64,000 nt of DNA from Candidatus Nomurabacteria bacterium. Its GTDB lineage: Bacteria > Patescibacteriota > Minisyncoccia > Phycocordibacterales > UBA9973. The DNA lies in the NCBI GenBank assembly GCA_021413905.1, contig JAIOPO010000005.1, positions 146,957-210,956 on the forward strand, written 5' to 3'. Position numbers and translations under genes: made by a program. Positions within the stretch are counted from its first letter, which is position 1. Each line of letters opens with the position of its first letter. Of the stretch, positions 11,373 through 59,350 are shown piece by piece. Under the pieces are notes generated by a model. It was not told where the DNA came from. It searched no databases and saw only the letters and a list, made by a program, of their open reading frames with translations.

Positions 11373-12779
11373 CTACCTATGATTAATTGAAATTGAACGA
11401 TTCGTATTCTGAATTTCTTTTAACAACCTATCAAGCATATATTTTGTATTGTGTTCAAAATCTTTATCCGTACTTACAGGAATATCAATATTAATTTCTT
11501 TACCTTGGTTCAGATAGTTTACCTTTTTGTTTTTTAAATCAAAAGATACCACTACATCACTTATGCTTTCTTTACTAAGAGACGCATATGCTTTACTTAT
11601 ATTATCTTCCGTAAGAATTTCAGAAAATGCATTTAAATTCTCATCGGATTTCCTTCCTATAAATTTTTCATTCTTGAAAAAAATTGAAAACAGTATATTT
11701 TTATATTTATCACTATGTGATGAGCCGTAAAGTATCTCTATTTCATCTTTTGGAACACTTGGATTTGAAGTAACTTCCCTTACTTGCATAAGTGTCGGAT
11801 GAGAGTACGACATAGTCATTATAAAATCGGTAATGTCTTTCTTTGCAAGATTAATGTTTTCCTTTGTCTCTTCTTTGTTTAAAGTATGATTCTCAACTTT
11901 AGTTAAATCATCGTGTCCCATTAATTGATTTTCTAAAAATTGTTCTTCTAGTTTAATTTTTAATTTCGCAAGAACCTCTTTACTGATGTGCCTATTTTCA
12001 CCAAGTTCATTAACCCAATCAATACTTAAGTCACTGTCAAAAAAGCTATCAAGATATTTGAAGTCTATTTCTTCAATTGGTTTTGTTATCTCTTCTAATA
12101 ACTTATTTTCGGTAGAATTTTTATCCAGATATTCCTTATTTTCAACAAAATTCTGCATTCTATCATCAAGTTGTGTGTCTTCTTTGGATACTTCTTTTTT
12201 ACCAAGAGTAATTGCTTCTCTCCAAAATTTAGATCTCATTTTACCCAAAGTAAGAACATCTATATCTAAATCTATACTTTTCTCAAAATCATAATGATAT
12301 ATAGAGTTACCAGAATTTATTACGCTAGATACATCAACTCCCATGCTCTCCAGTATTGCCATTGCTTTTAAATTATTTAAGGTAACTTGGTAACTCCCAG
12401 TACGATAACTTTCATTTATTGGAACAAGTGATTCCAGATATTTCATATCTTTAAGAAGTCGAAATACGCAATCTTTCAATTCTTGCTTTTTACTTTCATT
12501 AAAATCAGTCGTTTCAATTCTATTTAAATAAATATTTGCTTCGTTATGTATAGTTTCAAGAGCTGAATTTAATTGACCTTCTTTTAAATTTTGCTCAAAA
12601 ATTGAATAGGCAGGATTTAAAAAATTTCGCTGTATAGCATGAGCTTCTTGATACTCCTTCGTTTCTTTTTCTATTTCTAAATTCTCGACTGCTCTCTGAG
12701 GGTTCTCTTTTCGAGTTTTCTTCAAATCTTTCGCAAGATTGTCACGATATTCCGATGAATTAAAATTTGGTTTTTCCAT
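11373..12779 (-). CDS. Hypothetical acidic protein, 468 aa, no recognisable domain.
   Basis: Long ORF with a Lys/Glu-rich low-complexity composition. It is preceded by a copy of the structured leader RNA (12812-12975). Confidence 0.55.
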   Translation of the reverse strand: MEKPNFNSSEYRDNLAKDLKKTRKENPQRAVENLEIEKETKEYQEAHAIQRNFLNPAYSIFEQNLKEGQLNSALETIHNEANIYLNRIETTDFNESKKQELKDCVFRLLKDMKYLESLVPINESYRTGSYQVTLNNLKAMAILESMGVDVSSVINSGNSIYHYDFEKSIDLDIDVLTLGKMRSKFWREAITLGKKEVSKEDTQLDDRMQNFVENKEYLDKNSTENKLLEEITKPIEEIDFKYLDSFFDSDLSIDWVNELGENRHISKEVLAKLKIKLEEQFLENQLMGHDDLTKVENHTLNKEETKENINLAKKDITDFIMTMSYSHPTLMQVREVTSNPSVPKDEIEILYGSSHSDKYKNILFSIFFKNEKFIGRKSDENLNAFSEILTEDNISKAYASLSKESISDVVVSFDLKNKKVNYLNQGKEINIDIPVSTDKDFEHNTKYMLDRLLKEIQNTNRSISINHR

Positions 12780-20649: not shown

Positions 20650-21993
20650 TTATTTTTCTTCGTTTTCTTTTAGTAAAGTAATTTTCTTGTTGTTCAGTAC
20701 CAATCTCGTCCGCAGGTGACCCATCAGCTCGCGCTTCTCAAGCGGCGTACCCTCGCGGAGGACGTACTTCGCGTACTCTCTTGTATTCACATCGTCCTCG
20801 TTGATTGAATACTTCGGTGTACCTTTGGTCGCCAGTCGTTGTAGCCGGTTGAATCGTTTGATTTCTTCCTCCAGTTTCATTCGCATTCCCAGTTCATTGA
20901 TGCTCACTTGATCAATTACCTTGAACAGTTCCTCGATCAATTCTTCCTCGCGGATGTATTTGTTCTTGCAGTTGCGATCTCTTGCCTTCGAGCAGGAGTA
21001 GTAGACATACTTGGCCGTCGTCGTGTCTTTTAGCTCCTTGTACTTCTCCTGCGCCGTGATACCCGAGCCACATAGTCCGCAGGTAAACAATTTCGTGAAT
21101 GCGAATTCTCGATTTTCTCGCACAATCTTGTCTCGTTTCAGTTGCTCTTGTGCTTTCTCGTACAGTTCTTTCGTTATGATCGGCTCATGCTTCCCGTCGT
21201 ACCAATTGCCGGAGTCTCGGGGATACTCGAATGGTCCGTAGTAAATCGGCATGTTGAATATTCGGTACACTCCGCTCAGTGTCAGCGGCCGATTTCCTCT
21301 GGTGTGGAAATTCAGATCGAATCTGAGCCAGTTGTACACCTTTCGTCCGCTCCACCCCTCGTATGCCACTTTCTCGAACATTTTCCGGACGATCGGGGCG
21401 CGGTCGGGGTCGATTGCGATCTGGCATTTCCGGTCGAGCAGTTTCTGGTTCAGATACCCAAGCGGTGCCATGCCCGGCCAGAGTCCCATCTCAACCCTCG
21501 TTCGCAGTCCGCGCTTCACGTTAATGCCTCGGTTGTCGTTTTCGAGCTTCGCTTGCGAGCCGAGAATCATGAGCAGGAATTTCTCGTTCGGGTTGTTTCC
21601 GAACGTCTGCCCGAAGGTGCGTATCTGGTGCAATTTTCCCGCGTCCATGAGGTCGACAATTTTCCCGAGGTCACCCGCGTTTCTACTAATTCGATCCGGT
21701 GCCCATGTCAGGATGCCGTTGAACTTTCCGGCTCGCAGTTCGTCGATGATCTCGTTGAACACTGGCCGCTGACCCGTCTCTTTCGCGCTGTGACTCTCAC
21801 GCTTCATGGTCACAATCTCCAACCCCTCGCGCTCGGCCAGTTGGAGCATCTCCTTGATCTGGCTGTCGATGCTGAGCACCTGCCTCTCTTCCGACTCTGT
21901 CGATTTTCTCGCGTAGAGGCAGTATTTCATCTTGATCGGGATGACTACTTTGGCCGTCGTCCCTAATGGCGCTTGCGTTTGTGTATGGTTCAT
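20650..21993 (-). CDS. Large serine recombinase, integrase type, copy R1.
   Basis: YARKSTESEERQVLSIDSQ is the resolvase catalytic-Ser region. A recombinase domain follows, then the CGLCGSG...CSKARDRNC zinc ribbon and a C-terminal coiled-coil. The probable start is the M of MNHTQ... at about 21993, although the ORF is open to 22080. It is paralogous to 37815-39134 and 53409-54737. Confidence 0.85.
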   Translation of the reverse strand: MNHTQTQAPLGTTAKVVIPIKMKYCLYARKSTESEERQVLSIDSQIKEMLQLAEREGLEIVTMKRESHSAKETGQRPVFNEIIDELRAGKFNGILTWAPDRISRNAGDLGKIVDLMDAGKLHQIRTFGQTFGNNPNEKFLLMILGSQAKLENDNRGINVKRGLRTRVEMGLWPGMAPLGYLNQKLLDRKCQIAIDPDRAPIVRKMFEKVAYEGWSGRKVYNWLRFDLNFHTRGNRPLTLSGVYRIFNMPIYYGPFEYPRDSGNWYDGKHEPIITKELYEKAQEQLKRDKIVRENREFAFTKLFTCGLCGSGITAQEKYKELKDTTTAKYVYYSCSKARDRNCKNKYIREEELIEELFKVIDQVSINELGMRMKLEEEIKRFNRLQRLATKGTPKYSINEDDVNTREYAKYVLREGTPLEKRELMGHLRTRLVLNNKKITLLKENEEK

Positions 21994-22049
21994 ACATCTA
22001 CAGGAATGACGCAATACCGCTATGGAGTCCAGAGCGTCCCGAGTGGTAG

Positions 22050-22060
22050 GTGTTGGTAAC
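22050..22060. promoter_or_regulatory. Recombinase-associated conserved core GTGTTGGTAAC; putative attachment-site core at the R1 site.
   Basis: The same 11-mer recurs at 27696, 39189, 54793 and as GCTGTTGGTAAC at 58454. The left arm ...GATGACGCAA..AGAGCGTCCC is shared with the R3 site. Confidence 0.45.
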
Positions 22061-22083
22061 TTTTTTCTTGATATACTCACTAT

Positions 22084-37390: not shown

Positions 37391-37822
37391 ATGAATAAGA
37401 AAAACGTATACAAAGATAAGGACGGACGGGATATATTTCAAGTTAATACGATTTTTAATGTGCGTATTGAAAAAACATATTTACATCCCGAATATGATTT
37501 AACTGCTGACACAAATGAAATGACTGACACGGGACTTATGATTGTCTTCAAGCTTGAATCAAAAAACACCACTCTTCCATCATTTGTAGGACGATGGGAT
37601 CATAAACAAGGAGTACTCGATATAGATATATTCAAAGTTAGTAGAAAGATTGTAACCGACTTTCGTGCTGGTAAAAACAACTATGGTGGACATCACCCTT
37701 TACTAATTTCAGAAAGTCCTCGTTTGTTTGCAATAGATATAAATATACCTAAGGGGAAAATAATAGAAGGCGCAATGACTTTTAATATTGGTCACGGACA
37801 TGCTCCTATATTATTTAACTAG
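37391..37822 (+). CDS. Hypothetical protein of 143 aa.
   Basis: ORF only. Confidence 0.35.
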   Translation: MNKKNVYKDKDGRDIFQVNTIFNVRIEKTYLHPEYDLTADTNEMTDTGLMIVFKLESKNTTLPSFVGRWDHKQGVLDIDIFKVSRKIVTDFRAGKNNYGGHHPLLISESPRLFAIDINIPKGKIIEGAMTFNIGHGHAPILFN

Positions 37823-39134
37823 TAAGACTAAGCTTCTTATTCGCCAAACATATCTTACTCTTCAAGCAACCCAACAACTCTCTTTTTTCAATATCAGATC
37901 CTTCTTTTAAAATAAATTTTGCGTATCCTTGTATATCTACATTTGAAACATTAATTTTTTCTTTGGTTCCTAGTAGGAATCTTTGAAATTTAGTAAATCT
38001 TTCGATATCGTTTTTTATCTTTTCTTTGACTTCAAACTCATTGATCGAAATGTCTTCGAGCAGTAATTCAAATTGTTTGATTAACTCTTTCTCTTCAGTA
38101 TAGCCACATTTACAATGTTCGCCTTTGGCTTTAGTACATCCGTAATAAACATAACGATGCACATTTCCATTTTGTTGCTTTTTAAACTTTTCGTCAGCTG
38201 TAATTCCTGATCCGCAAAGCCCACAAGTCATCATTTTTGTAAAAGCGAATTCTTTGTTTTCAACTCTTAACACATTACTTTTTATTTGCTCTTGAACTAA
38301 ATCAAACAATTCTTTTGTAATTAACGGTTCATGTTTTCCTGTATACCAATTACCTGATTTTTTTGGATATTCAAAAACTCCGTAATAGAAAGGATTATCC
38401 AGTATCTTGTAGAGATTACCTAAACTTAAATGTTTTTTACCTACAGCTGTTCTGAAATTTAAATCAAATCTTAGCCAATTGTATATTTTTCTCCCACTAC
38501 ATTTTTCATATGCAACTTTTTCAAACATCTTTTTAATAGTTGACGCTCTTTCAGGATCAATTAACACCTCGCATTTTCTATCTGTCATTTTTTGATTTAA
38601 ATAACCAGTAGGAGCTACTCCAGGTCTTAGCCCCATTTCGGCTCTCGTTCGTAATCCTCTTTTTACATTTACACTTTTATTATCGTTTTCTAGTTTTGCT
38701 TGCGAACACAAAATCATTAAAAGAAATTTTTCATTTGGTGAATTCTTAAAATGTTGCCCATAAGTTCTAATTTCTAAAAGAAATTGCTGATCCATTAAAT
38801 CTACAATACTTCCTAAGTCACCAGCATTTCTACTTAATCTGTCGGGTGCCCAAGTTAGAATTCCATTAAACCTACCATGTCGCACATCTTCTAATATTTC
38901 TTTATATACAGGTCTTTGTCCTGACTCTTTGGCTGAATGTGATTCTCTTCTGATTTCAACAACATCGAGACCTTCTTTTTCAGCTAAACTAAGCATTTCT
39001 TTAACTTGCGAATCAATAGATAAAACTTGACGTTCTTCTGATTCAGTCGATTTTCTAGCATACAGTACGTATTTAATTTTTTGTATTGGTGCAAGAATTT
39101 CTTTTCCAATACGTGCTGACATATATGTTTCCAT
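37815..39134 (-). CDS. Large serine recombinase, integrase type, copy R2.
   Basis: IKYVLYARKSTESEERQVLSIDSQ, the CGLCGSG...C zinc ribbon, and roughly 65-70 percent identity by eye to R1 and R3. Confidence 0.85.
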   Translation of the reverse strand: METYMSARIGKEILAPIQKIKYVLYARKSTESEERQVLSIDSQVKEMLSLAEKEGLDVVEIRRESHSAKESGQRPVYKEILEDVRHGRFNGILTWAPDRLSRNAGDLGSIVDLMDQQFLLEIRTYGQHFKNSPNEKFLLMILCSQAKLENDNKSVNVKRGLRTRAEMGLRPGVAPTGYLNQKMTDRKCEVLIDPERASTIKKMFEKVAYEKCSGRKIYNWLRFDLNFRTAVGKKHLSLGNLYKILDNPFYYGVFEYPKKSGNWYTGKHEPLITKELFDLVQEQIKSNVLRVENKEFAFTKMMTCGLCGSGITADEKFKKQQNGNVHRYVYYGCTKAKGEHCKCGYTEEKELIKQFELLLEDISINEFEVKEKIKNDIERFTKFQRFLLGTKEKINVSNVDIQGYAKFILKEGSDIEKRELLGCLKSKICLANKKLSLTS

Positions 39135-39188: not shown

Positions 39189-39199
39189 GTGTTGGTAAC
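39189..39199. promoter_or_regulatory. GTGTTGGTAAC core 55 nt upstream of R2, flanked on the right by the arm TTCGCTTAACAAAAATA and leader RNA copy 2.
   Basis: ggcaacGTGTTGGTAACttcgcttaacaaaaatag. Confidence 0.45.
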
Positions 39200-39285
39200 T
39201 TCGCTTAACAAAAATAGTTATATGCGATAGGATTGATGGATTAATACAGACATATGCTGTATTATGTATATATAATTTAATAACC

Positions 39286-39432: not shown

Positions 39433-39461
39433 TCTCGTCAAATTAAAACCTTCCCAGTTTT

Positions 39462-40427: not shown

Positions 40428-40448
40428 AGCTATTAAGTAATAAATATG

Positions 40449-44969: not shown

Positions 44970-44974
44970 ATTTT

Positions 44975-45793: not shown

Positions 45794-45795
45794 AT

Positions 45796-46269: not shown

Positions 46270-46270
46270 G

Positions 46271-47062: not shown

Positions 47063-47110
47063 AATTTTTATTTCCTGTGAAAATTAGTACACTTTTGATA
47101 CAATAAACAA

Positions 47111-47614
47111 ATGATCAATTTAATTATCCTTGTATTTTTGATAGCAGTTGTTTTTATCTTTCTTAAAAAATATTTTCCAGACATATTTAATGAAAAAGAT
47201 AAGCCAAGCAAATCTCCGTATAATTACAAGAAAAAAGATTTTTTAATGAGTCGAGCAGAACATGAGTTTTTTGATATTCTTGTTGATATAGTAGGTAATC
47301 AATATTATGTATTTCCACAAATACACCTATCAACTATTTTAGACAATAAGGTTGTAGGACAAAATTGGAGAGGTGCCTTTCGTCACATAGATGAAAAATC
47401 AGTTGATTTTGTTATTTGTGATAAAGCATATATCAAACCAATTCTTGCCATTGAATTAGATGACAAAACACACGAAAGAGAAGATAGAAAAGGACGAGAT
47501 GGAGAAGTAGAGCGTATTCTTAAGGAATCAGGACTATCTCTTTTAAGATTTGGGAATAATGGGAGTTTTAATAAGGAAGAAATAAAAAGATCTATTTCAG
47601 AAAAAATAAAGTAA
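47111..47614 (+). CDS. Membrane-anchored DUF2726-like PD-(D/E)xK nuclease-fold protein.
   Basis: N-terminal TM; ...YVFPQIHL...VDFVICDK...LAIELDDKTHE gives a D...E.D arrangement. Confidence 0.55.
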   Translation: MINLIILVFLIAVVFIFLKKYFPDIFNEKDKPSKSPYNYKKKDFLMSRAEHEFFDILVDIVGNQYYVFPQIHLSTILDNKVVGQNWRGAFRHIDEKSVDFVICDKAYIKPILAIELDDKTHEREDRKGRDGEVERILKESGLSLLRFGNNGSFNKEEIKRSISEKIK

Positions 47615-47629
47615 TAGAAATCTATAGCA

Positions 47630-48610
47630 ATGCCGGACATAAAGAAAAACTTAATGTTGCTAACTGGTGCAGGGTTCACACGAAATTTTGGTGGGTTTTT
47701 AGCACGTGAGATGTGGTCAAAAATATTTAATAATCCAATTGTACAAGCAAGCGCAGAAGCACGAGGATTACTTTTGAATGATTTTGACTTTGAGTCTGTC
47801 TACTCGGCTAAAATGAGCCATGGAGAAGAAACAATAAAGATTATAAGAGAGGCTGTCGAAATGGCATATAAGGATCTTGATGATACAGTAAAAAATTGGG
47901 TTTTTAATCATGGCAATCCAACGGCACTTAATACATACGGGTTAGGTGAGCTTCTTAGTTTTATATCAAGTAGAGGTTCAGATAAAGGATGGTTCTTTAC
48001 CCTCAATCAAGATTTATTTATGGAACGAAAACATAATTACAGATCACCAGGAGCAATGTTTAGTCAGCCTTTTATTGAAGGAGATAATGGTAAAATTGGA
48101 ATTATAACTTTACCCAATGAAAACGGTGTAGAAAAAGTTAAAAATACTTTAAATAATGCAAGTTATATAAAACTACATGGATCATATGGCTGGATTTCAT
48201 CACACGGTGGCAATCAGATGGTAATTGGTAAAAACAAAGTAAATGATATTGATCAAGAACCATTATTAAAATGGTATTTTGAGATTTTTCAAAATCTAAT
48301 TAAAGAAGGTAATAAAAAATTATTAATCATTGGCTATGGGTTTGCCGATAATCATATAAACGACATTCTGCTTAACGGAATACAGGAGCATGGTCTTAGT
48401 TTGTATATAATAAGCACAACTGATCCAGAAACATTTAAAAATAGACTTGAGGGAAAACCGTCACATTTAGGCAGTTGGGAGGTTTCTAAATATTCAAAAA
48501 TATGGGATGGTGTTAAAGGATATTTTCCTTATTCATTAAGAGATATATACCCTCCAGACCAAAGTATTACTACCATATCACTAGAAATTAAAAAGGCTTT
48601 GGAAAGTTAA
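47630..48610 (+). CDS. SIR2_2-family (SIR2-like) protein; putative NADase effector.
   Basis: LLTGAGFTRNFGG, FFTLNQDLFMER, KLHGSYGW and LLIIGYGFADNHI motifs. Confidence 0.55.
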   Translation: MPDIKKNLMLLTGAGFTRNFGGFLAREMWSKIFNNPIVQASAEARGLLLNDFDFESVYSAKMSHGEETIKIIREAVEMAYKDLDDTVKNWVFNHGNPTALNTYGLGELLSFISSRGSDKGWFFTLNQDLFMERKHNYRSPGAMFSQPFIEGDNGKIGIITLPNENGVEKVKNTLNNASYIKLHGSYGWISSHGGNQMVIGKNKVNDIDQEPLLKWYFEIFQNLIKEGNKKLLIIGYGFADNHINDILLNGIQEHGLSLYIISTTDPETFKNRLEGKPSHLGSWEVSKYSKIWDGVKGYFPYSLRDIYPPDQSITTISLEIKKALES

Positions 48611-48673
48611 GTTACAGCTAACTGTAACATTTAAAGTCCAACTTGTGTCACTTTTGTAACTTTTTGAGATGCT

Positions 48674-48763
48674 CGAGACGCGTCGTTATGGTATGATAAA
48701 AAAAGTCTCAAAAGCCTTACAGGTCTTGTTTGCGAAAGGTTCTAACACGAGACCGCCCGCATT
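48674..48763 (+). pseudogene. Degenerate tRNA-Ser-like sequence (pseudo-tRNA) followed by a copy of the tRNA-Ser trailer block.
   Basis: It aligns end to end with tRNA-Ser 15950-16036 (GACGCGTCG.., ..GTCTCAAAAG.., ..ACAGG.., ..GGTTCTAACAC.., ..CCGCCCGCA), but the acceptor ends do not pair. Confidence 0.4.
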
Positions 48764-48832
48764 GACAACCTGTTAGTTTTGATGACCCATTTAGTTATGT
48801 ACTAAGTGCGACCCACAAACCTACATGTTGCA

Positions 48833-48866
48833 GAAAAAAGAACGACAATTGCCGTTCTTTTTTCTT
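48833..48866. terminator. Bidirectional intrinsic terminator.
   Basis: aaaaaAGAACGacaattgCCGTTCTtttttc. Confidence 0.55.
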
Positions 48867-49254
48867 AACTGAAATCTATTTCAAAATTATACATTCCCAT
48901 ACCACAAGTTCCCCTGAGTGGCTCACCAGCTTTAGGTATGCCGATATCAATTATTTCTTCTGCTGATTGAGAGAGAATTTTTTGATAATTAATTGATTTA
49001 ATAACCAAAGAAGCTGAACAGTCGTATGTACCGCTTGTTTTTACAATTAATTTTGTAGGAATACCTGCTTTAGCATTACTTAGTTGTGGAGAATACCCAC
49101 CCTTAGCATCAATTGTTATGTATTGTATCCCGTCTTTTATCTCGGTATTTTGAATTATTTTACTAGAGTCTTTTGTTGTTGATCCACCTGTTAAAACAAT
49201 ACCTATGGCAACAATAAGACCTAGTGTAATGATTATTGAAACTGTTTTGTTCAT
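48865..49254 (-). CDS. Membrane-anchored cupredoxin-like small protein.
   Basis: N-terminal TM and a C-terminal ...TCGMGMYNFEIDF cupredoxin-like end. Confidence 0.4.
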   Translation of the reverse strand: MNKTVSIIITLGLIVAIGIVLTGGSTTKDSSKIIQNTEIKDGIQYITIDAKGGYSPQLSNAKAGIPTKLIVKTSGTYDCSASLVIKSINYQKILSQSAEEIIDIGIPKAGEPLRGTCGMGMYNFEIDFS

Positions 49255-49272
49255 AAAGTAATTATATCAAAA

Positions 49273-50280
49273 TTAAATATTAAATAATGGATTTATAACA
49301 CCAAGACCTGCCAGCCCTGCGAGTAAAGCAAATATACCAAGACCTACAACAACAACTCCCGCAGATTTAAAGAATAAGGGTGCATGTTTACCATGCGCAA
49401 AAGATGCCGATCCAAAAGATAGAATTGAAAGCACTGGTAATGTTCCAAGAGCAAATGTAAACATAATCAATAATCCAGACATAAAAGATCCACTTGAAAT
49501 AGCTGCTACTTGCATAGCCTGTGTAAATCCACATGGTAAGAAGAATGTGGCAAATCCTATAATAAGAGGAGTTAAAGTTTTATGTTCAACCTTTCTAAAG
49601 AAATTAAAAACACCTGAAGGTAAGGTAACATTACTCTTTTTAAAAACTCCTACTAAATTTAAGCCAAGTAGTAGCATAACGATTGAAGCCACAATACCTA
49701 GTATTGCTGAGAATGTGAAACTTATACCAATAGCATTACCTATAAGTCCTAAAACTCCACCCAAAAGAGCAAAGCTGACTAATCTACCAGTATGAAAAAG
49801 TATGAAAGTTTTAGTATCGCTTATATTATCTTCAGAGATTTTCGCAGAAAGAGATAATACTAGACCACCGACAATCGCAAGACAACTTGAAACAGATGCA
49901 ATAAGACCAACGATAAAACTTGTCATTGGAGTAGTCTTACCTCCAATACCTAAATTGAGAATTCCTGATTTTTGTAATATGAAAAATAAGACAAGAAAAA
50001 CTAAACCAATAGGTATAGCTTTCCAAATAACATCATCTTCTTTATTTTTATTAAGTTTTTTTTCAACCGACAAAGAGTATCCATTGGGTTTAATTTTATC
50101 TGCAAGAATGGTTGCGATTTCGTCTATGTTCTGTTCAGTATTCATTTCAACATCTACGGTCTCATTTTTTAGATTTACATTTGATTTAACAACAAAAGAC
50201 TGCTCATTCAAAATATCTTCTATCAAGATTTTACATGATGCGCAGTGTGTTCCAGTTACATAAAATTTGTAATTTTTCAT
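49273..50280 (-). CDS. Heavy-metal-associated (HMA) domain fused to a DsbD/CcdA-like polytopic membrane region.
   Basis: N-terminal GTHCASCKILIE HMA motif; the remainder has 6-8 TM helices. Confidence 0.55.
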   Translation of the reverse strand: MKNYKFYVTGTHCASCKILIEDILNEQSFVVKSNVNLKNETVDVEMNTEQNIDEIATILADKIKPNGYSLSVEKKLNKNKEDDVIWKAIPIGLVFLVLFFILQKSGILNLGIGGKTTPMTSFIVGLIASVSSCLAIVGGLVLSLSAKISEDNISDTKTFILFHTGRLVSFALLGGVLGLIGNAIGISFTFSAILGIVASIVMLLLGLNLVGVFKKSNVTLPSGVFNFFRKVEHKTLTPLIIGFATFFLPCGFTQAMQVAAISSGSFMSGLLIMFTFALGTLPVLSILSFGSASFAHGKHAPLFFKSAGVVVVGLGIFALLAGLAGLGVINPLFNI

Positions 50281-50303
50281 TGTTTTATAAGTTAATATTT
50301 ATT

Positions 50304-50774
50304 TTAATCATAATTGAGCACTATCTTGTCTCCATCTTTCATATAATAATTCCCAAAATCCAATTTATCTACACCATTTACTGTCATCCTTATATTTGAA
50401 CCGAAAGAGTTTATATCCTTATTCCAAATTTTGAAAAACTCACTGAGTTTAGTATCTCTACCTCGAACTACTGATGAAAACTCCAAATGGATAACTCCTA
50501 ACTGTGAATCTTCGTCGTGAGTGTGAATTGGATTATGAACCGCACCAAGTCCAATATTTGCGGGGATTTCTACTTTTTCTCCTTTTATATATATAGAAAG
50601 CTCAGGATGCCAGTGAATTCCGTTTCGAGAAATTATTTCTGATTCATAAGGATTTTCCACACTACTAGATGAGGGTTTGTCTGAATATACGAAATAAACA
50701 AAAACCCCAATGACTAAAATGGCTAGTATCCATATCCAGATATTTTTATTATTTTTCTTGTGCTTATTTTTCAT
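50304..50774 (-). CDS. Membrane-anchored His-rich hypothetical protein.
   Basis: TM anchor, then HWHPE...HNPIHTHDED, which are possible metal ligands. Confidence 0.4.
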   Translation of the reverse strand: MKNKHKKNNKNIWIWILAILVIGVFVYFVYSDKPSSSSVENPYESEIISRNGIHWHPELSIYIKGEKVEIPANIGLGAVHNPIHTHDEDSQLGVIHLEFSSVVRGRDTKLSEFFKIWNKDINSFGSNIRMTVNGVDKLDFGNYYMKDGDKIVLNYD

Positions 50775-50776
50775 AA

Positions 50777-53095
50777 TTATAATCTCTTACTTTTAATTCT
50801 CAGTGAGTTCGACACAACTGACACTGATGACATCGCCATCGCAAATCCTGCAAATACTGGATTAAGCAACCAGCCAAAAATTGGGTAAAAAACTCCAGCC
50901 GCAAGAGGGATTCCTACAATATTGTAAATGAATGCCCAAAAAAGGTTTTGTTTAATTCCTCGCATTGTTATTTTTGATAACCTTATTGCTTTTACAATTT
51001 TTGAAATATCTCCACCCAGGAGTGTAATTCCTGCTGACTCAATGGCAACATCAGTACCTGTACCCATGGCGATACCGACATCGGCTTGAGCTAGTGCAGG
51101 AGCGTCATTTACTCCATCACCCGCCATAGCAACAACATGTCCTTGGGATTGAAGTTCTTGTATTTTTAATAACTTATCTTGAGGTAAAACATGAGCAACA
51201 ACTTCATCGACTCCAACAAGAGATGCGATGTGTTTCGCCGCTTTTTCATCATCGCCTGTAAGCATCACTACTTTAATTCCAAGTTTATGAAGAGCATTAA
51301 TAGCTTCTTTTGATTCAGGTTTTATTTCATCTGCAACCATTACAAAACCAAGAACTTTTTCTTTTGTAGATATAATGACAGGAGTTTTTCCTTGGGATGT
51401 AAACTCTTCTAGCAATGTTTGATCAAAAGAAAGATTTAAATCTTTAATAAGCTTTATATTACCAACAAAATATTCAACCTGCTTAACAGACCCTTTTAGA
51501 CCTTTTCCTTGAATTCCTTCAAAGTTTGAAACTTCTTGTATGGGGATATTCTTCTCTTTTGCATAGTTCACAATTGCGTGTGCGATTGGATGTTCAGATT
51601 TTTTCTCTAGTGTTGCAAGTATTCCTATCAAATCTTCATTACTCATATCTGAGCTATTTTGGATATCAACAAGTGTCGGTTTCCCAATTGTTATCGTTCC
51701 TGTTTTATCCATCATGACAGTATCAACTTTGTGTAATTTCTCTAGCGTAGCCGCATCTTTAATCAGTATTCCTTCCTTTGCTCCTTTACCAACCCCTACA
51801 ATGATTGCAGTCGGGGTAGCAAGTCCAAGTGCACATGGGCATGCAATAACTAATATCCCGACAAAGGATACAAGTCCAAATGAAAGAGCTTGTGAAAATC
51901 CAAGTGAGCCAGTTCCAAACGCCAACCATACCCCCAAAGTCACAAAAGCTAAGATAAGAACTATCGGTACAAAAACGCTTGAAATCTTATCAGCTAATGC
52001 CTGAATAGGGGCTTTACTCCCTTGGGCTTCTTCAACCATGTGTATAATTTGAGCCAGCAATGTTTCTGATCCAACTTTTGTGGCTTTAAAAACAAACGAT
52101 CCACTTGTATTAATTGTTCCTGCGACCACACTATCTCCAATCTTTTTCTGTACTGGCATTGGCTCTCCTGTTACCATTGATTCATCAACAAAAGATGATC
52201 CCTCAGTAATGACTCCGTCTACTGGAATCTTTGTTCCTGGTTTAACAATAATTAAGTCTCCATGCTTAACCTCATTTATAGAAATCTCTACTTCCTTACC
52301 TTCACGCACAACCAAGGCTGTTTTTGCTTGAAGATTTAAAAGTTTTTCTATCGCATCTCCTGTTTTAATTTTTGAACGAGCTTCTAAATATTTACCAAGA
52401 GCGATAAAAGTAATCACTACAATGGTCACATCGTAGTAAGTATGATCTACATTTATAAAAGGTCTGAGTACTTCTTCAAATGCACTGACAGCAAAACTAT
52501 ATAAAAAAGCGGCAACAGTACCGATACCGATAAGTGTATCCATATTAGCTTTGCCATATCTTAAGAAACGATAAAACCCCAGAAGATATGGTTTCCCTAC
52601 AACAAATAGAGTATAGGTCGCAAAAATAGGTAATAGATGGTGAAAAAATTCTTTGAGTGTATAGCTCATCATAGGGACAATACTGTACTGAGCAAGAATA
52701 TCCCAAGTCATGACGAAAACACTAAAGATGGCTAGTGGAATAGCTGACATGACTTTAGATTTCATATCCTTTATCTCTTCAATCTTTTCCTTTTTTGACT
52801 GATTTAATCCTAAATGTTCAGCATGTTCGTTTTCACTCATACCCATAGAACTCGCAGGCATGCTTTCCGTACTATGATCCATAGGTGCTATCAAAGAATA
52901 CCCAAGCGGTTCCAATTTCTTATTAAAAGATTCAGCGTTAGTTTTTGAACTATCAAAAACAATCTTTGCGTTCTCGGTACCATTGTTTACTGAAATATCT
53001 TCCACTCCATCGATTTTTTTTACTGTTCTTTCAATAATACTTGCACACGAAGCACAATGCATACCTTTAATTTTGTATATCTTTGGAGTATTCAT
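50777..53095 (-). CDS. copA: Copper-translocating P1B-type ATPase.
   Basis: HMA motif [12 protein letters not shown]; transmembrane CPC motif; DKTGTIT phosphorylation site; [10 protein letters not shown]. Confidence 0.9.
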
Positions 53096-53098
53096 AAA

Positions 53099-53362
53099 TT
53101 ATTTTCGCTTAAGCTGATAAACTTTTAAAATTTCCTTAGTAGCAACATCGACTTTGCCACTTTTAATTTGACCAACAACACAATGACCAAGGTGGCTCTC
53201 AAGGAGAATATCCTCAATACTTGAAAGACCTTGTTTTACAGCAGAGGTCTGGGTAATGACATCGATACAGTACTTTTCCTCTTCAATCATTTTTTGGATA
53301 CCTCGAACTTGTCCTTCTATTTTTTTGAGCCTTGTTATGAGTTTTTGTTTATCTTTATGCAT
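53099..53362 (-). CDS. csoR: CsoR/RcnR-family copper-sensing repressor. Revised start at MHKDKQ.
   Basis: ...RLKKIEGQVRGIQKMIEEEKYCIDVITQTSAV...HLGHC. The track ORF extends to 53404 but would include the operator palindrome. Confidence 0.8.
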   Translation of the reverse strand: MHKDKQKLITRLKKIEGQVRGIQKMIEEEKYCIDVITQTSAVKQGLSSIEDILLESHLGHCVVGQIKSGKVDVATKEILKVYQLKRK

Positions 53363-53400
53363 AATGCTATTATACCCCCTAGGGGGTATAATAGCAAGTT
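53363..53400 (-). promoter_or_regulatory. csoR-copA promoter with the perfect 20-bp palindrome TATACCCCCTAGGGGGTATA, a CsoR-type operator, lying between a -35 TTGCTA and a -10 TATAAT.
   Basis: The minus-strand read is TTGCTAttaTACCCCCTAGGGGGTATAATagcattATG. The spacer is 17 nt, and the operator matches the ATACCC...GGGTAT CsoR-box style. Confidence 0.55.
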
Positions 53401-53408
53401 TCAAAATG

Positions 53409-54737
53409 TCAGTCTACTAGAGTAATCTTCTTCTCTTTCAGTATCAATCTACTCCTCAAATGTCCCATTAATTCACGCTTCTCAAGTGGTGTACCTTCTC
53501 TCAGCACATACTTGGCATACTCTCTTGTGTTCACATCATCTTCATTGATGTTGTATTTCGGAGTGCCTTTAGTTGCCAACCTCTGCAGTCTGTTAAATCG
53601 CTTGATCTCTTCTTCAAGTTTGATTCGCATACCCAGTTCGTTGATGCTTACCTTATCGATTACTTTGAACAGCTCCTCGATCAATTCTTCTTCTCGTATA
53701 TATTTATTTTTACAATTCCTATCTCTCGCCTTGGAACATGAGTAGTACACATACTTGGCAGTCGTGCCATCTTTGAGTTCCTTATACTTCTCCTGTGCCG
53801 TTATTCCTGACTCGCACATTCCGCAGGTAAATAATTTGGTAAATGCAAACTCTCGATTTTCTCTCACAATCCTATCTCGCTTCAGTTGCTCCTGTGCTTT
53901 TTCAAATAGCTCTTGAGTAATGATCGGCGTATGGCTTCCTTGGTACCAGTTATCGCTATTTCGTGGATACTCGAATGGTCCATAGTAGATCGGCATATTG
54001 AAGATACGATAAACCCCTGAGAGTGTCAGGGGCTTATTTCCTCGGGTATAGAAATTTAGATCAAATCTGAGCCAGTTGTATACTTTTCTTCCACTCCATT
54101 TTTCGTATACCACTTTCTCAAACATTTTCTTGATAATCGGCGCTCGTTCTGGATCAATCACTATTTGGCACTTTCTGTCCATTAGTTTTTGATTCAGGTA
54201 TCCAAGCGGTGCCATTCCAGGCCATAACCCCATCTCCACTCTCGTTCGCAATCCTCGCTTCACATTGATACCTCGATTGTCATTTTCAAGTTTTGCTTGG
54301 CTTCCTAATATCATCAGGAGGAACTTCTCATTTGGATTATTTCCGAATGTCTGCCCAAAAGTTCGTATCATATGCAGTTTTCCTGAATCCATCAGGTCTA
54401 CGATTTTTCCCAAGTCTCCTGCGTTTCTTGAAATTCTATCTGGTGCCCAAGTCAGTATTGCATTGAACTTCTCTTGTTTGAGTTCCTCGATAATTTCATT
54501 GAAGACTGGTCGTTGTCCTGTCTCCTTTGCACTATGGCTCTCACGCTTCATGGTGACCACTTCAAGCCCCTCGCGGTCTGCCAGTTGGAGCATCTCGCTG
54601 ATTTGGCTATCTATGGAAAGCACTTGTCGTTCCTCAGATTCTGTTGATTTTCTTGCGTATAAGCAGTATTTAATCTTCTTTGGTTCAACCTCTGGTTTCT
54701 TTACGCCTTGCTCTTGGTTTGGGTTTTCTATCTTCAC
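53409..54737 (-). CDS. Large serine recombinase, integrase type, copy R3; its stop is 4 nt from the csoR ORF.
   Basis: KYCLYARKSTESEERQVLSIDSQISEMLQLADREGLEVV. It is near-identical to R1 over long stretches and has a zinc ribbon CGMCESG...C. Confidence 0.85.
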   Translation of the reverse strand: MKIENPNQEQGVKKPEVEPKKIKYCLYARKSTESEERQVLSIDSQISEMLQLADREGLEVVTMKRESHSAKETGQRPVFNEIIEELKQEKFNAILTWAPDRISRNAGDLGKIVDLMDSGKLHMIRTFGQTFGNNPNEKFLLMILGSQAKLENDNRGINVKRGLRTRVEMGLWPGMAPLGYLNQKLMDRKCQIVIDPERAPIIKKMFEKVVYEKWSGRKVYNWLRFDLNFYTRGNKPLTLSGVYRIFNMPIYYGPFEYPRNSDNWYQGSHTPIITQELFEKAQEQLKRDRIVRENREFAFTKLFTCGMCESGITAQEKYKELKDGTTAKYVYYSCSKARDRNCKNKYIREEELIEELFKVIDKVSINELGMRIKLEEEIKRFNRLQRLATKGTPKYNINEDDVNTREYAKYVLREGTPLEKRELMGHLRSRLILKEKKITLVD

Positions 54738-54792
54738 AACTACATTGATGACGCAAATCGTCCTAGGAGTCTAGAGCGTCCCACCGCCATAG

Positions 54793-54803
54793 TGTTGGTA
54801 ACT
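54793..54803. promoter_or_regulatory. GTGTTGGTAAC core upstream of R3; the left arm is shared with the R1 site.
   Basis: tgaTGACGCAAatcgtcctaggagtctAGAGCGTCCCaccgccataGTGTTGGTAACtaaaacgcc. Confidence 0.45.
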
Positions 54804-54880
54804 AAAACGCCTTTATTTAAAGGTCGATTTTTGGTAAAATGCATTTACTGGCATAAGAAACTTATGCCCAATATTAAAGT

Positions 54881-57400
54881 ATGAAAATTTTTATTCGCAA
54901 TAATCTATATCGCTCAAAAAAATTTTGGCTCACAAAAAAATGGTTTGAAGAAAAACCAATTTTTAGCTTTTGGGCAAAAATCTTTAAACTCGACTTTAAT
55001 ATAAATAAGGGTAAATATTCGGCACGCTTATTGTGGCCTTCAATTTTTCCCTTCATTCGGACCCTTATCTATTCTGTTTTTATAATCGCAATTTTTGAAA
55101 CGTACAGTTACTTTTTTCCAGTAGACCAAAAGATATTTAGCGATCAAGTTACCGATACACTACTTTCGGCAATTGCCAGTGTTTCCGGTGTATTCCTTGG
55201 TCTTTATTTTACAGCTGTTTCCGGTATTGCTAGTAATTTTTTATTGCGTGCCACTCAAAACATAAGGCGTTACTTCCTCTCAACTCCAATTGGAGAACAA
55301 TACGTTAAAACCGTAGCCCTTACAGGCATCATAAGTATTTTTTACCTCTTGGCAAAATCGTTTGGACACCCAATACATCCAGTTGGCTTAGTATTTCTTT
55401 GTATTGGTGGAGCCTATATCATAATCAGATTTTGGAGTGTTGGATCAAATGTTTTCTATTCATTGGAACCAACTGTTGCCCTGCCTTCAATCGGTAAAAA
55501 CATTGCAGACCTATTGAGGGGGGTTACGCCACCGGGTTTTAAATGGGATAAACCAGCAATACAAAATCATCAAAGACGCCTAGTGTCAGATAATTTAGAG
55601 CTTGCTAAAGACCTTATTAATTTTGGAATTAAAGAGATAAAGCTTTCAAATGAACAATTGCATATTGCTCTTCGTTATTTAGGTGGTTTGCTTTTTTTGT
55701 ATCCTCAATACAAGAAGAAGATACCGACTAATAGCTTTTGGTTCAAAACAAAAAATCAGTACGATAGTTGGACCTTGGCGGATTCAACACAAATCGCTCT
55801 TGCCTTAAACACTGGCACAAGTTTGCAACCCAAGACAATCAAAGATTTTACTTGGTTTGAAGAAGAAACTTTGGATATGAGTGTAAATATTTTTGAGTTT
55901 TACGCCAAAGAGAAAAATGTTGCCTCTGTATTCCAAGGACTAGAACTTTTTGTAGAAATCGCTGAAGTTTATGCGAATGATTTTGATGAGGAAGGACTAA
56001 AGCTTCTTTTACAGAAAACAGAAAAGGTTGCAGGATTGATTGACCTAGAAAAAGTAGCAGATCCAAAAAATGTTCGGTATAAAGAACAAATGGCTTTTAT
56101 TGATACTCAAGGTCGGTTAGCGATAGGAGCGGTGCTTGGATTGGCTAGGTATCTTGATACTGCTTCTGCGGAAAGCTTATCCACGACTATTTCAAATATT
56201 AAATGGTATTCAAATAGAGACATTTATCTTACTGGGTTACCTTTGTCGGTTCTATCGCGTCTGGAATCCACTGCAAGTGATTTAAAGGCTGAAATGCTAA
56301 TTGAGGGTAAGCAACTTTCCCCTGAGTGGTATATACGCACTCTTTGCGTTCAGAAATACTTATTCGCACTCTTAGGTTATTTCAAATATCTAAAGACTCT
56401 TCATTCAACTTACTTTGAACCAAAGCTTGGGAAATTACTTGCCGAGGATCAATTAGGTCTTGCTGTTCAATTGGTGCAACGCTGGATCGAGTTTACTCAC
56501 AAATATAATCGGCTCGTTGGATTGATTGCAAAACATATTGAAGATTGCGTACCTTATCACCAAGTCAAAGATCTTTCTTGGATAGAGTTTAGTGCGGACG
56601 AAGAGTATAAAACCGCAAGGGACCGCGAAAAAGAAGTAACTGATAAAATGATTAGATTATTGCCTCGATTAATGACAATGCCTACCGAAAGCGATATGCC
56701 AGACTACTTTGGGCAAGCTCTTACGCAAGGCGTTCAGGCCTGTTATGAGGCGTGTGAGGAGAACGACCCAGTTAGATTGAAAGCAATATTCCCGGTTGTT
56801 TTTATAGCTTCACTTTCGGCTTTTGATATGACCCGAGTGAGAGTTCAAAACTGGTCCGAAGAACAAAGCAAAATAATCTATTCAACAGAACCTCTTATAA
56901 ATCTCTACGAACTAAGTGGATTTGCTAAATTGTATTCAGAGCTCTACCAAAACACGGAGCTTTGGAATGTTGTGCAAACACCGTGGGACACTTATTTGGG
57001 TGGTATCGATGCAGTACAAGAAATTACACGCATAGCGGCCATTACTAACTATCGATGTGGACTTTTCATGATCATGCCACAAGCAACCTTACGAACAAAC
57101 TGGCAAATGCGATTTAGTAATAAAATGAGAGAACAAGGTTTAGCTGTTTTCCCCGACAGTAGAAGTTATGACTATGTAAATGGCCGAGAAGATCCTGCGC
57201 ATGCGAGCGCGGTTATTCGTGTAGTTACTCGATCAGGTGGTTTGAGTTTATCTACAGGTCAGACTGTATTTTTCGTAACATATTTATCCCAACACCCGGG
57301 GGCAACAGGAATTGATCTACCAGACCAACGCGACATGAGAGAACAAATACAACGAGAAGAAGAAAGATCTAATGAGGAAGAAAACAACGACTATGAATAA
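54881..57400 (+). CDS. Large polytopic-membrane-anchored protein of 839 aa, unknown function.
   Basis: About 6 N-terminal TM helices, then a cytoplasmic region of roughly 600 aa with no recognisable motif and an acidic C-terminal tail. Confidence 0.55.
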   Translation: MKIFIRNNLYRSKKFWLTKKWFEEKPIFSFWAKIFKLDFNINKGKYSARLLWPSIFPFIRTLIYSVFIIAIFETYSYFFPVDQKIFSDQVTDTLLSAIASVSGVFLGLYFTAVSGIASNFLLRATQNIRRYFLSTPIGEQYVKTVALTGIISIFYLLAKSFGHPIHPVGLVFLCIGGAYIIIRFWSVGSNVFYSLEPTVALPSIGKNIADLLRGVTPPGFKWDKPAIQNHQRRLVSDNLELAKDLINFGIKEIKLSNEQLHIALRYLGGLLFLYPQYKKKIPTNSFWFKTKNQYDSWTLADSTQIALALNTGTSLQPKTIKDFTWFEEETLDMSVNIFEFYAKEKNVASVFQGLELFVEIAEVYANDFDEEGLKLLLQKTEKVAGLIDLEKVADPKNVRYKEQMAFIDTQGRLAIGAVLGLARYLDTASAESLSTTISNIKWYSNRDIYLTGLPLSVLSRLESTASDLKAEMLIEGKQLSPEWYIRTLCVQKYLFALLGYFKYLKTLHSTYFEPKLGKLLAEDQLGLAVQLVQRWIEFTHKYNRLVGLIAKHIEDCVPYHQVKDLSWIEFSADEEYKTARDREKEVTDKMIRLLPRLMTMPTESDMPDYFGQALTQGVQACYEACEENDPVRLKAIFPVVFIASLSAFDMTRVRVQNWSEEQSKIIYSTEPLINLYELSGFAKLYSELYQNTELWNVVQTPWDTYLGGIDAVQEITRIAAITNYRCGLFMIMPQATLRTNWQMRFSNKMREQGLAVFPDSRSYDYVNGREDPAHASAVIRVVTRSGGLSLSTGQTVFFVTYLSQHPGATGIDLPDQRDMREQIQREEERSNEEENNDYE

Positions 57401-58439
57401 ATACTTTAAAAAAATTAAAGAGGCAGTGTTGGTCTACTTAAAAGATCCTCTTTTATTGCGAAAGTGGGATCAACCAGATTATTACCGATATAGAGGACGT
57501 GGTGATGATAATAATCAGTTGTCATTCAGGAGTTCACGAAACAGACGTCATGGGTATCATTATCACGGTACGTCTTCAATGTTTATTGAAGATATGTTTA
57601 GCGGAATAATGCCGTTTATGATTTATAGCGGCGTTAGAGAAAAGTATCCTGCAAAAATTGAACCAGCCGCACCCGACAAAGAAGCAATAATTGCTCAAGG
57701 TCTTTCTGGTCGCAGACATCGAACAGCATTAGGTGAAGGTCTTTGTGATTTTATTCGTGATACAGCACATGTGCTTTTTCAAGACGGCGTAGCAATATAC
57801 GAAATTATTTATAAAAAGAACGAAGCTGGAGAAACCGAAAGCTATAGCTTTGAATTAATGGACCATTATGGTCTATATAGATTTTTTGGCAATTACTATC
57901 AATTTGTTTCTTGGGCTGATGCAAAGGCTTCACATACCAAAGTTCAAATAATCAAAATACCGAAAGAAAAAGTATTACGCATCGAGTTCCCAAAAGAACT
58001 CGGTGGGCAAAAACGTATCAATAAAATATTAAAACGATCATGGGAACTCGGACAAGAGATTATTCCTAAATTTCAAATGGACGCAATGGAAAAACAAGAA
58101 AACATTGGCTTTGATTCAAAGATATATACGGAAGCAAAGTATTTAGAAATTGCGACTCTTACAAAAGACTTGGGATGGAACCAGCGTCAGTTATCAACCA
58201 ACCATATTACGGAATATTATGCCCTTCTACGTCTTCTTAGGCAAAAGAAAGTAGAAGCTACTGTTCGAGAAATGATTTTTACCAAACTTAATGAAGCCTT
58301 AAATGGATCAGTTTTAAACTTTGGTGCTCAAGTTTCAATGGATAATCTTTTTACCGCTTCTGATATTGATGTACGTGTCAAAAAACTTAAAGAAGGTAAC
58401 ACAACTTTTATTGATTTGTTCACCGATACAAGTTTTTAA
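57393..58439 (+). CDS. Hypothetical protein of about 348 aa, translationally coupled to the upstream gene.
   Basis: The ATG sits inside the TATGAATAA overlap with the stop of the 54881 gene. The product is Arg/His-rich near its N-terminus. Confidence 0.5.
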   Translation: MNKYFKKIKEAVLVYLKDPLLLRKWDQPDYYRYRGRGDDNNQLSFRSSRNRRHGYHYHGTSSMFIEDMFSGIMPFMIYSGVREKYPAKIEPAAPDKEAIIAQGLSGRRHRTALGEGLCDFIRDTAHVLFQDGVAIYEIIYKKNEAGETESYSFELMDHYGLYRFFGNYYQFVSWADAKASHTKVQIIKIPKEKVLRIEFPKELGGQKRINKILKRSWELGQEIIPKFQMDAMEKQENIGFDSKIYTEAKYLEIATLTKDLGWNQRQLSTNHITEYYALLRLLRQKKVEATVREMIFTKLNEALNGSVLNFGAQVSMDNLFTASDIDVRVKKLKEGNTTFIDLFTDTSF

Positions 58440-58453
58440 GATTTGAAATCTAG

Positions 58454-58465
58454 CTGTTGGTAACT
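58454..58465. promoter_or_regulatory. GCTGTTGGTAAC core variant with right arm TCTACTACACAATAAAC, upstream of leader RNA copy 3; no recombinase is adjacent.
   Basis: atctaGCTGTTGGTAACtctactacacaataaactcg; the right arm is homologous to those at 27707 and 39200. Confidence 0.4.
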
Positions 58466-58545
58466 CTACTACACAATAAACTCGATATAAGCTAAAGTAC
58501 AAAAATACCTGTGAAAATGGTATAATTCGTTTACAACTGAATAAG

Positions 58546-58688
58546 AGACCTAACCCCTCAGGGATTTTCTTGAGGATATGGTCGAAAGCCCTATCAAGCA
58601 TAAAGAACCCGTCATGGGGTCGCTTGATAGGCCGTATTGGGAAACTGGTACGAGAGGTTTCGACCTCTACCCGTGGCGGGCTTTTTGT
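58546..58688 (+). ncRNA. Structured leader RNA copy 3 of the novel motif.
   Basis: GACCUAACCCC[ccuca..ugagg]GGAUAUGGUC GAAA [gccctatcaagc AUAAAGAACCCGUCAUGGGGUC gcttgatagggc] CGUAUUGG-GAAA-CUGGUACGA [gaggt-UUCG-acctc] uACCCGUGGCGGGcuuuuu. An extended -10 box TGgTATAAT is at 58517-58525. Confidence 0.6.
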
Positions 58689-58732
58689 GTAAAAGCTCGA
58701 TACGGAATTATTAACTAAGTCCTATCAAGCAA

Positions 58733-59350
58733 ATGAATAATGAAAATACAGAGCCTGTTAAATCAGTCTCAGGTAGCTTAATAATCCTTTGGCTTCTAGG
58801 TGTATCCGTAGCTATTATGGGTATCGCTGGAGGATCTATCACGGTTATATTAGCTGGGATAATTTTATTACCAATCACTAATACTCTCATCAAGAAGTAT
58901 CTCAAGATAAATCTATCGAGTATGGCTCGGGTCGTAATCGCCGTACTGCTCATTGTCGTAGGTTCTATCGCTTCAAGTTCTCTAGATGAAGCACGCGAGA
59001 AAGTTAGTGAAAATTCTTCAATTGACACAGTTTCTCAAGAAGAAGTTTACAGTGAGATTGCCTCATTTAGTGGCAAGGGCAACCAAGATACAGGATCGTT
59101 TTCTGTTACAGGTAAAAAAGTAAGAATAACAGCAACTACATGTTGTGGTAGCAGTTCATCGGGTACTTATTCAGGAGTGAGCCTCAAAAAAGAAAATGAC
59201 GGTTACACTGGCCCAGGTTTGTCTATTTCTACAGAGGGGTCTGAGAAGGGTCAAGGACAAACGACTTACCGCAATCTTACACCTGGTCAGTATTACATCC
59301 AGGTCATTACTGGAGTTAACTGGGAGGTTAAGGTTGAGCAAGTAAACTAG
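58733..59350 (+). CDS. Membrane protein with 3-4 TM helices and a Ser/Gly/Thr-rich extracellular C-terminal domain.
   Basis: ILWLLGVSVAIMGIAGGSITVILAGIILLPI..., then ...TTCCGSSSSGTYSG. Confidence 0.5.
   Translation: MNNENTEPVKSVSGSLIILWLLGVSVAIMGIAGGSITVILAGIILLPITNTLIKKYLKINLSSMARVVIAVLLIVVGSIASSSLDEAREKVSENSSIDTVSQEEVYSEIASFSGKGNQDTGSFSVTGKKVRITATTCCGSSSSGTYSGVSLKKENDGYTGPGLSISTEGSEKGQGQTTYRNLTPGQYYIQVITGVNWEVKVEQVN

Follow-up and report, generated by a model that had tools for sequence, protein, structure and literature searches.

Kiwa, with KwaA and KwaB, and Zorya, with its membrane ZorAB core, are examples of defence systems in which a membrane protein is joined by a soluble partner. 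Phage portals are DNA-translocating rings. Here we describe a gene pair that resembles the former in organisation and, through the predicted fold of its second product, the latter. The pair, A–B, lies in a stretch of 64,000 nucleotides (hereafter the window) from a bacterium of the candidate phyla radiation (CPR); a hypothetical protein from Candidatus Nomurabacteria GW2011_GWE1_32_28 matches protein A at 100% identity. An earlier note, drawn up from the letters of the sequence, had pointed to two overlapping genes between recombinase core sites and had proposed a membrane-anchored defence or abortive-infection system. We find that A and B form an obligate, translationally coupled pair, occasionally fused, and that B is predicted to have the fold of a tailed-phage portal. 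In our leading interpretation, to which we assign a probability of roughly 0.45, A–B is a self-contained mobile module that most likely serves anti-phage or anti-mobile-element defence, with a portal-like ring of B acting alongside the membrane partner A. The two genes are as follows.

54881..57400, + strand: gene A, 839-aa membrane protein, from the open reading frame (ORF) listing and direct reading
57393..58439, + strand: gene B, soluble protein of 348 aa, its predicted fold like that of phage portals; start codon ATG at 57393

The two overlapping reading frames of the earlier note are real: the ORF listing and direct reading agree with an independent assembly, in which the same 839- and 348-aa genes are called. 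The genes share the overlap ATGAATAA, with the start codon of B 8 nt inside A and the overlap spanning A's TAA at 57398-57400 (GACTATGAATAAA). In a database clustered at 90% identity, A has 90 homologues and B has 132, and a profile of B reaches 1127 clusters at 50% identity. A scan of a genome collection for the pair returned 52 loci. Of the 42 non-redundant loci whose contigs permitted the comparison, 41 have a B homologue immediately after A, L043 being the exception. Among 38 adjacent pairs, 34 overlap or lie no more than 3 nt apart, and 24 keep the 8-nt ATGnnTAR overlap. One protein, P0336 (1145 aa, locus L060, 8001-11438), joins the two naturally, with A as residues 2-795 and B as residues 860-1142; it is the sole fusion among 150 listed representatives, and may be genuine or an artefact of a frameshift in the overlapping genes. 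Comparison of neighbours across loci revealed no third conserved gene beside the pair. The ORFs, their overlap, these pairing counts and the cores described below together bear out the idea of a translationally coupled, membrane-anchored two-component unit between recombinase sites.

The most informative feature of the pair, absent from the earlier note, is the predicted fold of B. AlphaFold yields a confident model (pLDDT 85, pTM 0.85), and when this model was compared with the PDB by Foldseek, the top 50 matches were all portals or portal-containing entries, including those of HK97, G20c, P23-45, 80alpha and phage 812, with E-values from 3e-4, probability 1.0, TMq of 0.40-0.49 and full-length alignments. 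In BFVD, all named matches but one were portals, portal-family proteins (COG4695) or phi29-type upper-collar proteins (best E 6.8e-5). Both structure searches place the model with the phage portal fold, and B is predicted to be a soluble protein of that fold. The most conserved motif of B, GWNQR (261-265), forms a short loop between two long helices (242-260 and 274-303), a loop that would occupy the clip position of a portal.

Protein A is also modelled with confidence (pLDDT 83) and is all-helical. Where about six N-terminal transmembrane helices had been counted before, hydropathy and the AlphaFold model give about four, at approximately 53-77, 90-121, 136-160 and 167-193. They are preceded by a basic, amphipathic N-terminus and followed by an all-helical domain of about 640 aa, which a positive-inside reading (N-in/C-in) would place in the cytoplasm. 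Conservation is strongest in the second transmembrane helix (SGVFLGLYFTA) and in PDYFG (607-611), and many invariant residues are kept across the family. Foldseek returned only generic alpha-solenoid and designed-repeat matches for A (TM < 0.22), and no fold was assigned. Pfam, PADLOC, NCBIfam, PHROGs and Foldseek revealed no nuclease, ATPase or other nucleic-acid motif in A.

At the level of sequence families, neither protein produced a meaningful match in Pfam, NCBIfam, PADLOC or PHROGs, in keeping with the lack of recognisable motifs reported earlier. Marginal matches to lectin_4 (E 0.02) and phrog_8044 (E 0.21) were dismissed as noise. Profile searches of A and B against PDB sequences gave no match. 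Homology to a housekeeping membrane complex, a possibility that the earlier note had raised against its own reading, was not found in the family searches, in the PDB-profile searches or, for A, with Foldseek.

The surroundings of the pair, in many phyla and on plasmids, are defence islands or recombinase-bearing regions. Immediately upstream of the pair, and in the same orientation, are Type I HsdS-HsdR-YgjP genes (L009, L011), Type III Mod-Res genes (L014, L017) or an SNF2 helicase gene (L045). Further neighbours comprise toxin-antitoxin genes of the SocA/Panacea, NERD and MNT types, Type II and IIG enzymes, a methylase, PD-T4-6-like kinases and tyrosine or serine recombinases. Large serine recombinases (LSRs) are the sole recurrent neighbour family, at 8 loci. 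No phage structural gene (capsid, terminase or tail) was found near the pair in the neighbourhoods compared, and no metabolic or transport neighbour recurs there. Judged from these individual loci, the pair has the recurrent defence-island location expected of defence systems in general. In locus L009, A–B travels within a composite Type I restriction-modification cargo: between 564 and 13544, an R3-family recombinase (see below) leads directly into a co-directional series made up of a 580-aa ORF (possibly HsdM), a pair of small ORFs, and then HsdS, HsdR, YgjP, A and B. The recombinase arm is recognisable at this locus; the core is different.

The pair is patchily distributed. In the genome-collection scan it occurs in Patescibacteria, Acidobacteriota, Bacteroidota, Bacillota, Verrucomicrobiota, Omnitrophota and Bathyarchaeia. 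Homologues outside Patescibacteria are 23-30% identical and come from Acidobacteriota, Rhodothermales, Ignavibacteria, Chthoniobacterales, Omnitrophota, Syntrophomonas, Dendrosporobacter and one Bathyarchaeia archaeon. Others are carried on plasmids: a conjugative Burkholderia glumae plasmid (NZ_CP021077; WP_209954640 and WP_209954642), where they lie between insertion sequence elements beside a VapC toxin-antitoxin pair, and two Paenibacillus plasmids, including Paenibacillus lautus pAZOPL1 (WP_119851504 and WP_119851503). Searches of 50,697 phage genomes by tblastn and pattern scans of IMG/VR returned no homologue of A or B.

In the window, the pair occupies a slot between an LSR gene and a LOOT RNA, whose parts are these.

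53409..54737, − strand: LSR R3, 442 aa, with Pfam Resolvase, Recombinase and Zn_ribbon_recom domains; divergent from A and outside the core-bounded segment
54738..54792, no strand: recombinase-side arm (..AATGACGCA..GGAGTCTAGAGCGTCCC..), between the R3 start codon and the core
54793..54803, + strand: left core TGTTGGTAACT, exact repeat
54804..54880, + strand: 5' region of the cargo, with hairpin CCTTTATTTAAAGG and T-run (54811-54832) and an extended −10-like TGGTAAAAT (54832-54840), read by eye
58455..58465, + strand: right core TGTTGGTAACT, exact repeat
58466..58546, + strand: LOOT-side arm (..CTACACAATAA..TAAGCTA..), containing TGGTATAAT (58518-58526); putative promoter, by eye
58547..58668, + strand: LOOT RNA RF03000, Rfam 82.1 bits against a gathering threshold of 46.4; hairpin and U-run end near 58690

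The two core sites proposed earlier to bracket the pair are identical over 11 nt, and their recurrence exceeds that in shuffled sequence. TGTTGGTAACT is also found exactly at 22051 and 39190, with a one-mismatch copy at 27697; when up to one mismatch is allowed, 6 copies occur in the window, whereas shuffles average 1.07 and none of 100 attains 6. Paralogues of R3 lie at 20650..22080 and 37815..39134. Alignment gives the recombinase-side arm as ..AATGACGCA..GAGTCYAGAGCGTCCC.., an arm shared by the sites at 22051 and 54793, by L001, L005 and L057 and by at least 118 stretches of metagenome sequence. For the LOOT-side arm, alignment gives ..ACACAA..TAAGCTA..TGGTATAAT..; it is conserved in L001, L128, L096, L093, L068 and L076 and, in the window, follows the cores at 27697, 39190 and 58455. 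At 54793/58455 the A–B segment lies between the two arms. At 39190 both arms are joined with nothing between them, and this site is therefore an empty slot. The sister slot at 22062-27696, bounded by the cores at 22051 and 27697, holds a 5.6-kb zinc-uptake ABC transporter (ZnuA, ABC-3, ABC_tran) with a YibE/F protein, so that the cargo of these slots extends beyond defence.

Corresponding arrangements occur elsewhere. Locus L001 has the same order of recombinase-side arm, core, A, B, core and LOOT, with A 74% identical and different outer flanks. A metagenome scan for the recombinase-side arm plus core matched at least 118 stretches, from which 80 loci were retrieved. R3-family recombinases flank the arm in about half of these 80 loci, some of them near-identical to R3 (phmmer E near 1e-296), and the DNA beyond the core varies from locus to locus. 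A second core lies about 90 nt before LOOT in L128, L096, L093, L076, L068 and L130, where LOOT is on the contig, and encloses cargos of 0.36-8 kb; in L106 the site ahead of LOOT is a diverged variant. The complete order of recombinase-side arm, core, cargo, core and LOOT is thus seen in the window, L001, L128, L096, L093, L076, L068 and L130, and empty slots are seen in L072, L126, L136 and at 39190 of the window. A strict metagenome pattern of recombinase-side arm, core and LOOT-side arm, sought for an orthologous empty site, gave 0 matches. Cargos in other slots include 5 DNA methylases, Type ISP and MmeI/Eco57I-like enzymes, HamA, a reverse transcriptase (RVT_1), a PD-(D/E)XK nuclease and radical-SAM proteins. 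As a slot, the LSR–core–LOOT junction is general: elsewhere it is empty or filled with other cargo, mostly restriction-modification or other defence genes.

The RNA after the right core, previously taken for a leader, is a LOOT RNA; our own covariance model scores it at 110 bits, and about 92 nt separate it from the core. It looks like a free-standing small RNA (sRNA) gene rather than a leader, because it has its own TGGTATAAT upstream and a terminal hairpin with a U-run, both by eye. Further copies lie at the same distance from a core at 27789-27921 (after core 27697) and 39286-39411 (after core 39190). At the slots, LOOT is oriented divergently from the recombinase gene, and any cargo begins exactly at the core. 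A fourth copy, on the minus strand at 12834-12975, has no recognisable core alongside and is followed by a 468-aa ORF (11373..12779) that does not encode an R3-like recombinase; LOOT can therefore also occur away from the slot. An RNA-guide role for LOOT found no support: complementarity between LOOT and the core was sought by eye, and none was seen.

The start of the cargo has a recurring appearance. A similar CTAAAAnnCnTTTATTTAAAGG hairpin with a T-run directly follows the core in the cargos of L093, L128, L096, L062, L067, L070 and L101 and at 54804-54845 of the window, and after these hairpins stands an extended −10-like TGnTAnAAT, both read by eye. This common motif could be an arm used in recombination on the cargo side, or else an insulator with a promoter. 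All promoter statements are by eye, because a consensus scan of 54700-58760 for promoters and terminators did not rise above shuffles.

The remainder of the window is rich in defence genes at the level of Pfam domains, as the earlier note had it: SIR2_2, PycTM, Mrr_cat, GIY-YIG, NYN and, in all, 5 N6_N4 methylases. It also holds metal transporters and housekeeping genes. An AAA_21 domain, first read as Abi-like, belongs to the zinc ABC transporter segment at 22-27 kb, where it is probably an ABC ATPase, and was dropped as evidence of defence. To the left of the A–B slot, a 15.6-kb segment (39190-54793) begins with LOOT, ends with R3 and carries copper-resistance genes, among them cupredoxin and DsbD_2+HMA genes as well as the following.

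50777-53095: CopA-type ATPase, within the copper-resistance segment
53099-53404: small putative regulator

This segment looks like a complete LOOT-to-LSR element in tandem with 27697-39190. A model of the whole island as tandem elements, each running from LOOT to recombinase, fits 27697-39190 and 39190-54793 but fails on the 0.4-8 kb cargos between recombinase gene and LOOT in many independent contigs, and was rejected. Two contigs end near the recombinase gene: L057 (Logan contig, 12,393 bp) about 40 nt, and L001 (209-kb contig) about 3.3 kb, past its 3' end, which hints at a repeat or strain-variable junction nearby. At the far left of the window, a giant ORF of more than 2514 aa on the minus strand (1-7545) runs off the end; GC content there is 32%, compared with 38% for the whole window.

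How the pair might act can be sketched from the models and the layout. B would oligomerise into a portal-like ring docked on the soluble helical domain of A. Such a ring could mimic a phage portal and be bound by a phage part that normally recognises portals, for instance the complex of terminase with DNA, an adaptor or neck protein, or the scaffold. Engagement of the ring might then sequester the packaging machinery or send a signal to A, whose highly conserved transmembrane helices would compromise the membrane and lead to abortive infection. The module itself probably arrived as a circle with one core, which the LSR would have inserted between the recombinase gene and LOOT. The expected junction of the circular cargo would be ..GAAATCTAGC-TGTTGGTAACT-AAAACGCC.., and that of the empty slot ..CCGCCATAG-TGTTGGTAACT-CTACTACAC... 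A bolder proposal, which we consider unlikely, is that B is a viral portal captured by cells, held as a ring on A as a decoy for terminase or neck proteins, and carried, like many other exchangeable cargos, in a previously undescribed LSR–core–LOOT cassette platform.

The suggestion of defence made in the earlier note stands up to two checks that the note had proposed: the pair is found in defence contexts, beside restriction-modification operons of Types I and III and next to recombinases and toxin-antitoxin genes, and homology to a housekeeping complex did not appear. It remains an argument from guilt by association, with no match to a known defence family. Several observations weigh against a defence module built on a portal-like ring. 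The likeness of B to portals is structural alone and of moderate degree (TM < 0.5, rmsd 8-18 Å). Aligned by hhalign with the HK97 portal, as a single sequence and as a 14-sequence profile, B profiles gave probabilities of 0.1-0.2%, the value for a 119-sequence B profile and the portal profile being 0.2%; that portal profile was shallow (Neff 1.7), the homology search behind it having yielded close HK97 relatives alone. A local G-x-A-Y helix/hairpin stretch aligned in both hhalign runs was not counted as evidence for portal kinship. B found no portal among PDB sequences with hmmsearch, and no match to the Pfam portal models (PF04860 and others) or to PHROGs at E up to 1. Neither A nor B has a catalytic or pore motif, and neither matches any PADLOC-DB v2.0 family at E up to 1. 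Loci L003 and L004 have the pair among housekeeping genes (MreB, RRF, DnaG and sigma-70) and beside a tRNA gene. A–B occupies 0 of the 80 metagenome slot loci, and its association with the slot is therefore known from few lineages only. The slot also accepts the non-defence zinc transporter and YibE/F cargo at 22062-27696, so that slot occupancy alone does not imply defence. Protection by the pair is a candidate function, drawn from association.

That same zinc cargo, together with the copper-resistance genes of the left-hand element and the want of any nuclease, ATPase or other nucleic-acid motif in A, would suit an adaptive role apart from nucleic acids, in which A–B is an envelope, stress or host-interaction module carried about by mobile elements and the portal-like fold a reused oligomeric scaffold. 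We hold this to be improbable: time and again, in genomes that are not related, the pair is found in tight linkage with restriction-modification operons and toxin-antitoxin genes, no metabolic or transport neighbour recurs, and a virus-derived fold suits a virus-related role better. The fold could also be taken at face value. If B is a ring of the DNA-translocating kind and A its membrane anchor, the pair might form or gate a channel for DNA uptake or export to the benefit of recombinase-borne elements, and the presence of LSR genes as sole recurrent neighbours and of the pair on plasmids would fit. CPR bacteria are not known for classical conjugation systems, and a conduit would be especially useful there. 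Such a conduit is nonetheless a long shot, since no gene for transfer, whether of an ATPase or motor, a relaxase or another component, is conserved beside the pair, four transmembrane helices per A and a B without any do not obviously make a trans-envelope channel, and a position 3' of restriction-modification operons is more typical of defence add-ons.

Two further explanations can largely be set aside. The portal fold of B might mark it as the leftover portal gene of a decaying prophage, with A an unrelated neighbour. This is effectively refuted by about 1100 diverged B clusters of conserved length, the invariant residues of the A family, the strict coupling and fusion of the two genes, and the lack of terminase, capsid or tail neighbours, of homologues in the phage genomes searched and of a Pfam portal match. 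That A–B is a housekeeping membrane complex of CPR bacteria, as its company in L003 and L004 might suggest, is the least credible of all. In both loci the pair begins right after the tRNA gene, a classic insertion point of islands; elsewhere it is patchy across phyla, occurs on plasmids and in one archaeon and has varying flanks; in the window it is bounded by recombinase cores, with related slots empty; and it matches no housekeeping family.

If A–B is a defence system, it would bring in a new principle, in which the host encodes an imitation of a central virion part and couples it to a membrane partner. The family would be large, with about 1100 clusters at 50% identity; it is found in at least one archaeon as well as in many bacterial phyla, and it is abundant in the CPR bacteria, which are poorly understood. 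Were the captured-portal decoy true, it would be the first immune module built from a portal. The plasmid homologues in culturable Paenibacillus and Burkholderia make the pair directly testable. The LSR–core–LOOT slot is of interest as a natural cargo-exchange site, as a source of recombinases with defined short sites and as the first genomic context for the orphan LOOT RNA motif; we found no literature link between LOOT and recombinases.

Phage portals are among the described systems closest to B. Its predicted fold aligns over its full length with portals of the HK97 gp3/PF04860 type and with G20c, P23-45 and phi29-type connectors, and it is close in size to minimal portals. B differs from them in having no sequence or profile similarity, in lying outside the phage genomes searched and outside head-morphogenesis modules, in its very short loop at the clip position (about 13 residues) and minimal C-terminal region, and in being always coupled to a membrane protein. 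In the Avs family, as the complex of Avs4 with a portal (8dgf) illustrates, the phage portal and packaging machinery are the target of bacterial immunity. The Avs4-bound PhiV-1 portal is among the weak structural matches of B, at rank 47, because it is a portal. In Avs, a host protein recognises the phage portal, whereas in A–B the host encodes a portal-like protein, a putative logic of mimicry or decoy; no paper on portal-like proteins in defence was found in the literature. With Kiwa and Zorya, A–B shares organisation only: a transmembrane protein with a cytoplasmic partner, location in defence islands and horizontal mobility. No PADLOC model matches A or B, however, and neither Kiwa nor Zorya structures are among the fold matches of either protein.

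The slot invites comparison with integrons, which likewise combine a recombinase gene and an adjacent fixed site (IntI and attI) with interchangeable cassettes and exist in empty and occupied states. Its recombinase is an LSR with Resolvase, Recombinase and Zn_ribbon_recom domains rather than a tyrosine IntI, its boundaries are 11-nt direct cores without attC hairpins, most slots hold one cargo block rather than an array, and an sRNA gene, LOOT, flanks the site. With LSR-mobilised elements (those of the Bxb1 and phiC31 integrases, SCCmec ccr and Tn4451 TnpX), the slot shares the recombinase family and the short identical cores that flank the insert, and empty sites exist elsewhere; unlike them, the A–B segment has no recombinase of its own, R3 (53409-54737) lying outside the cores, to the left of that at 54793. 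A two-gene cargo in a defence island is familiar in kind; the components A and B and the LSR–LOOT slot that carries them are not.

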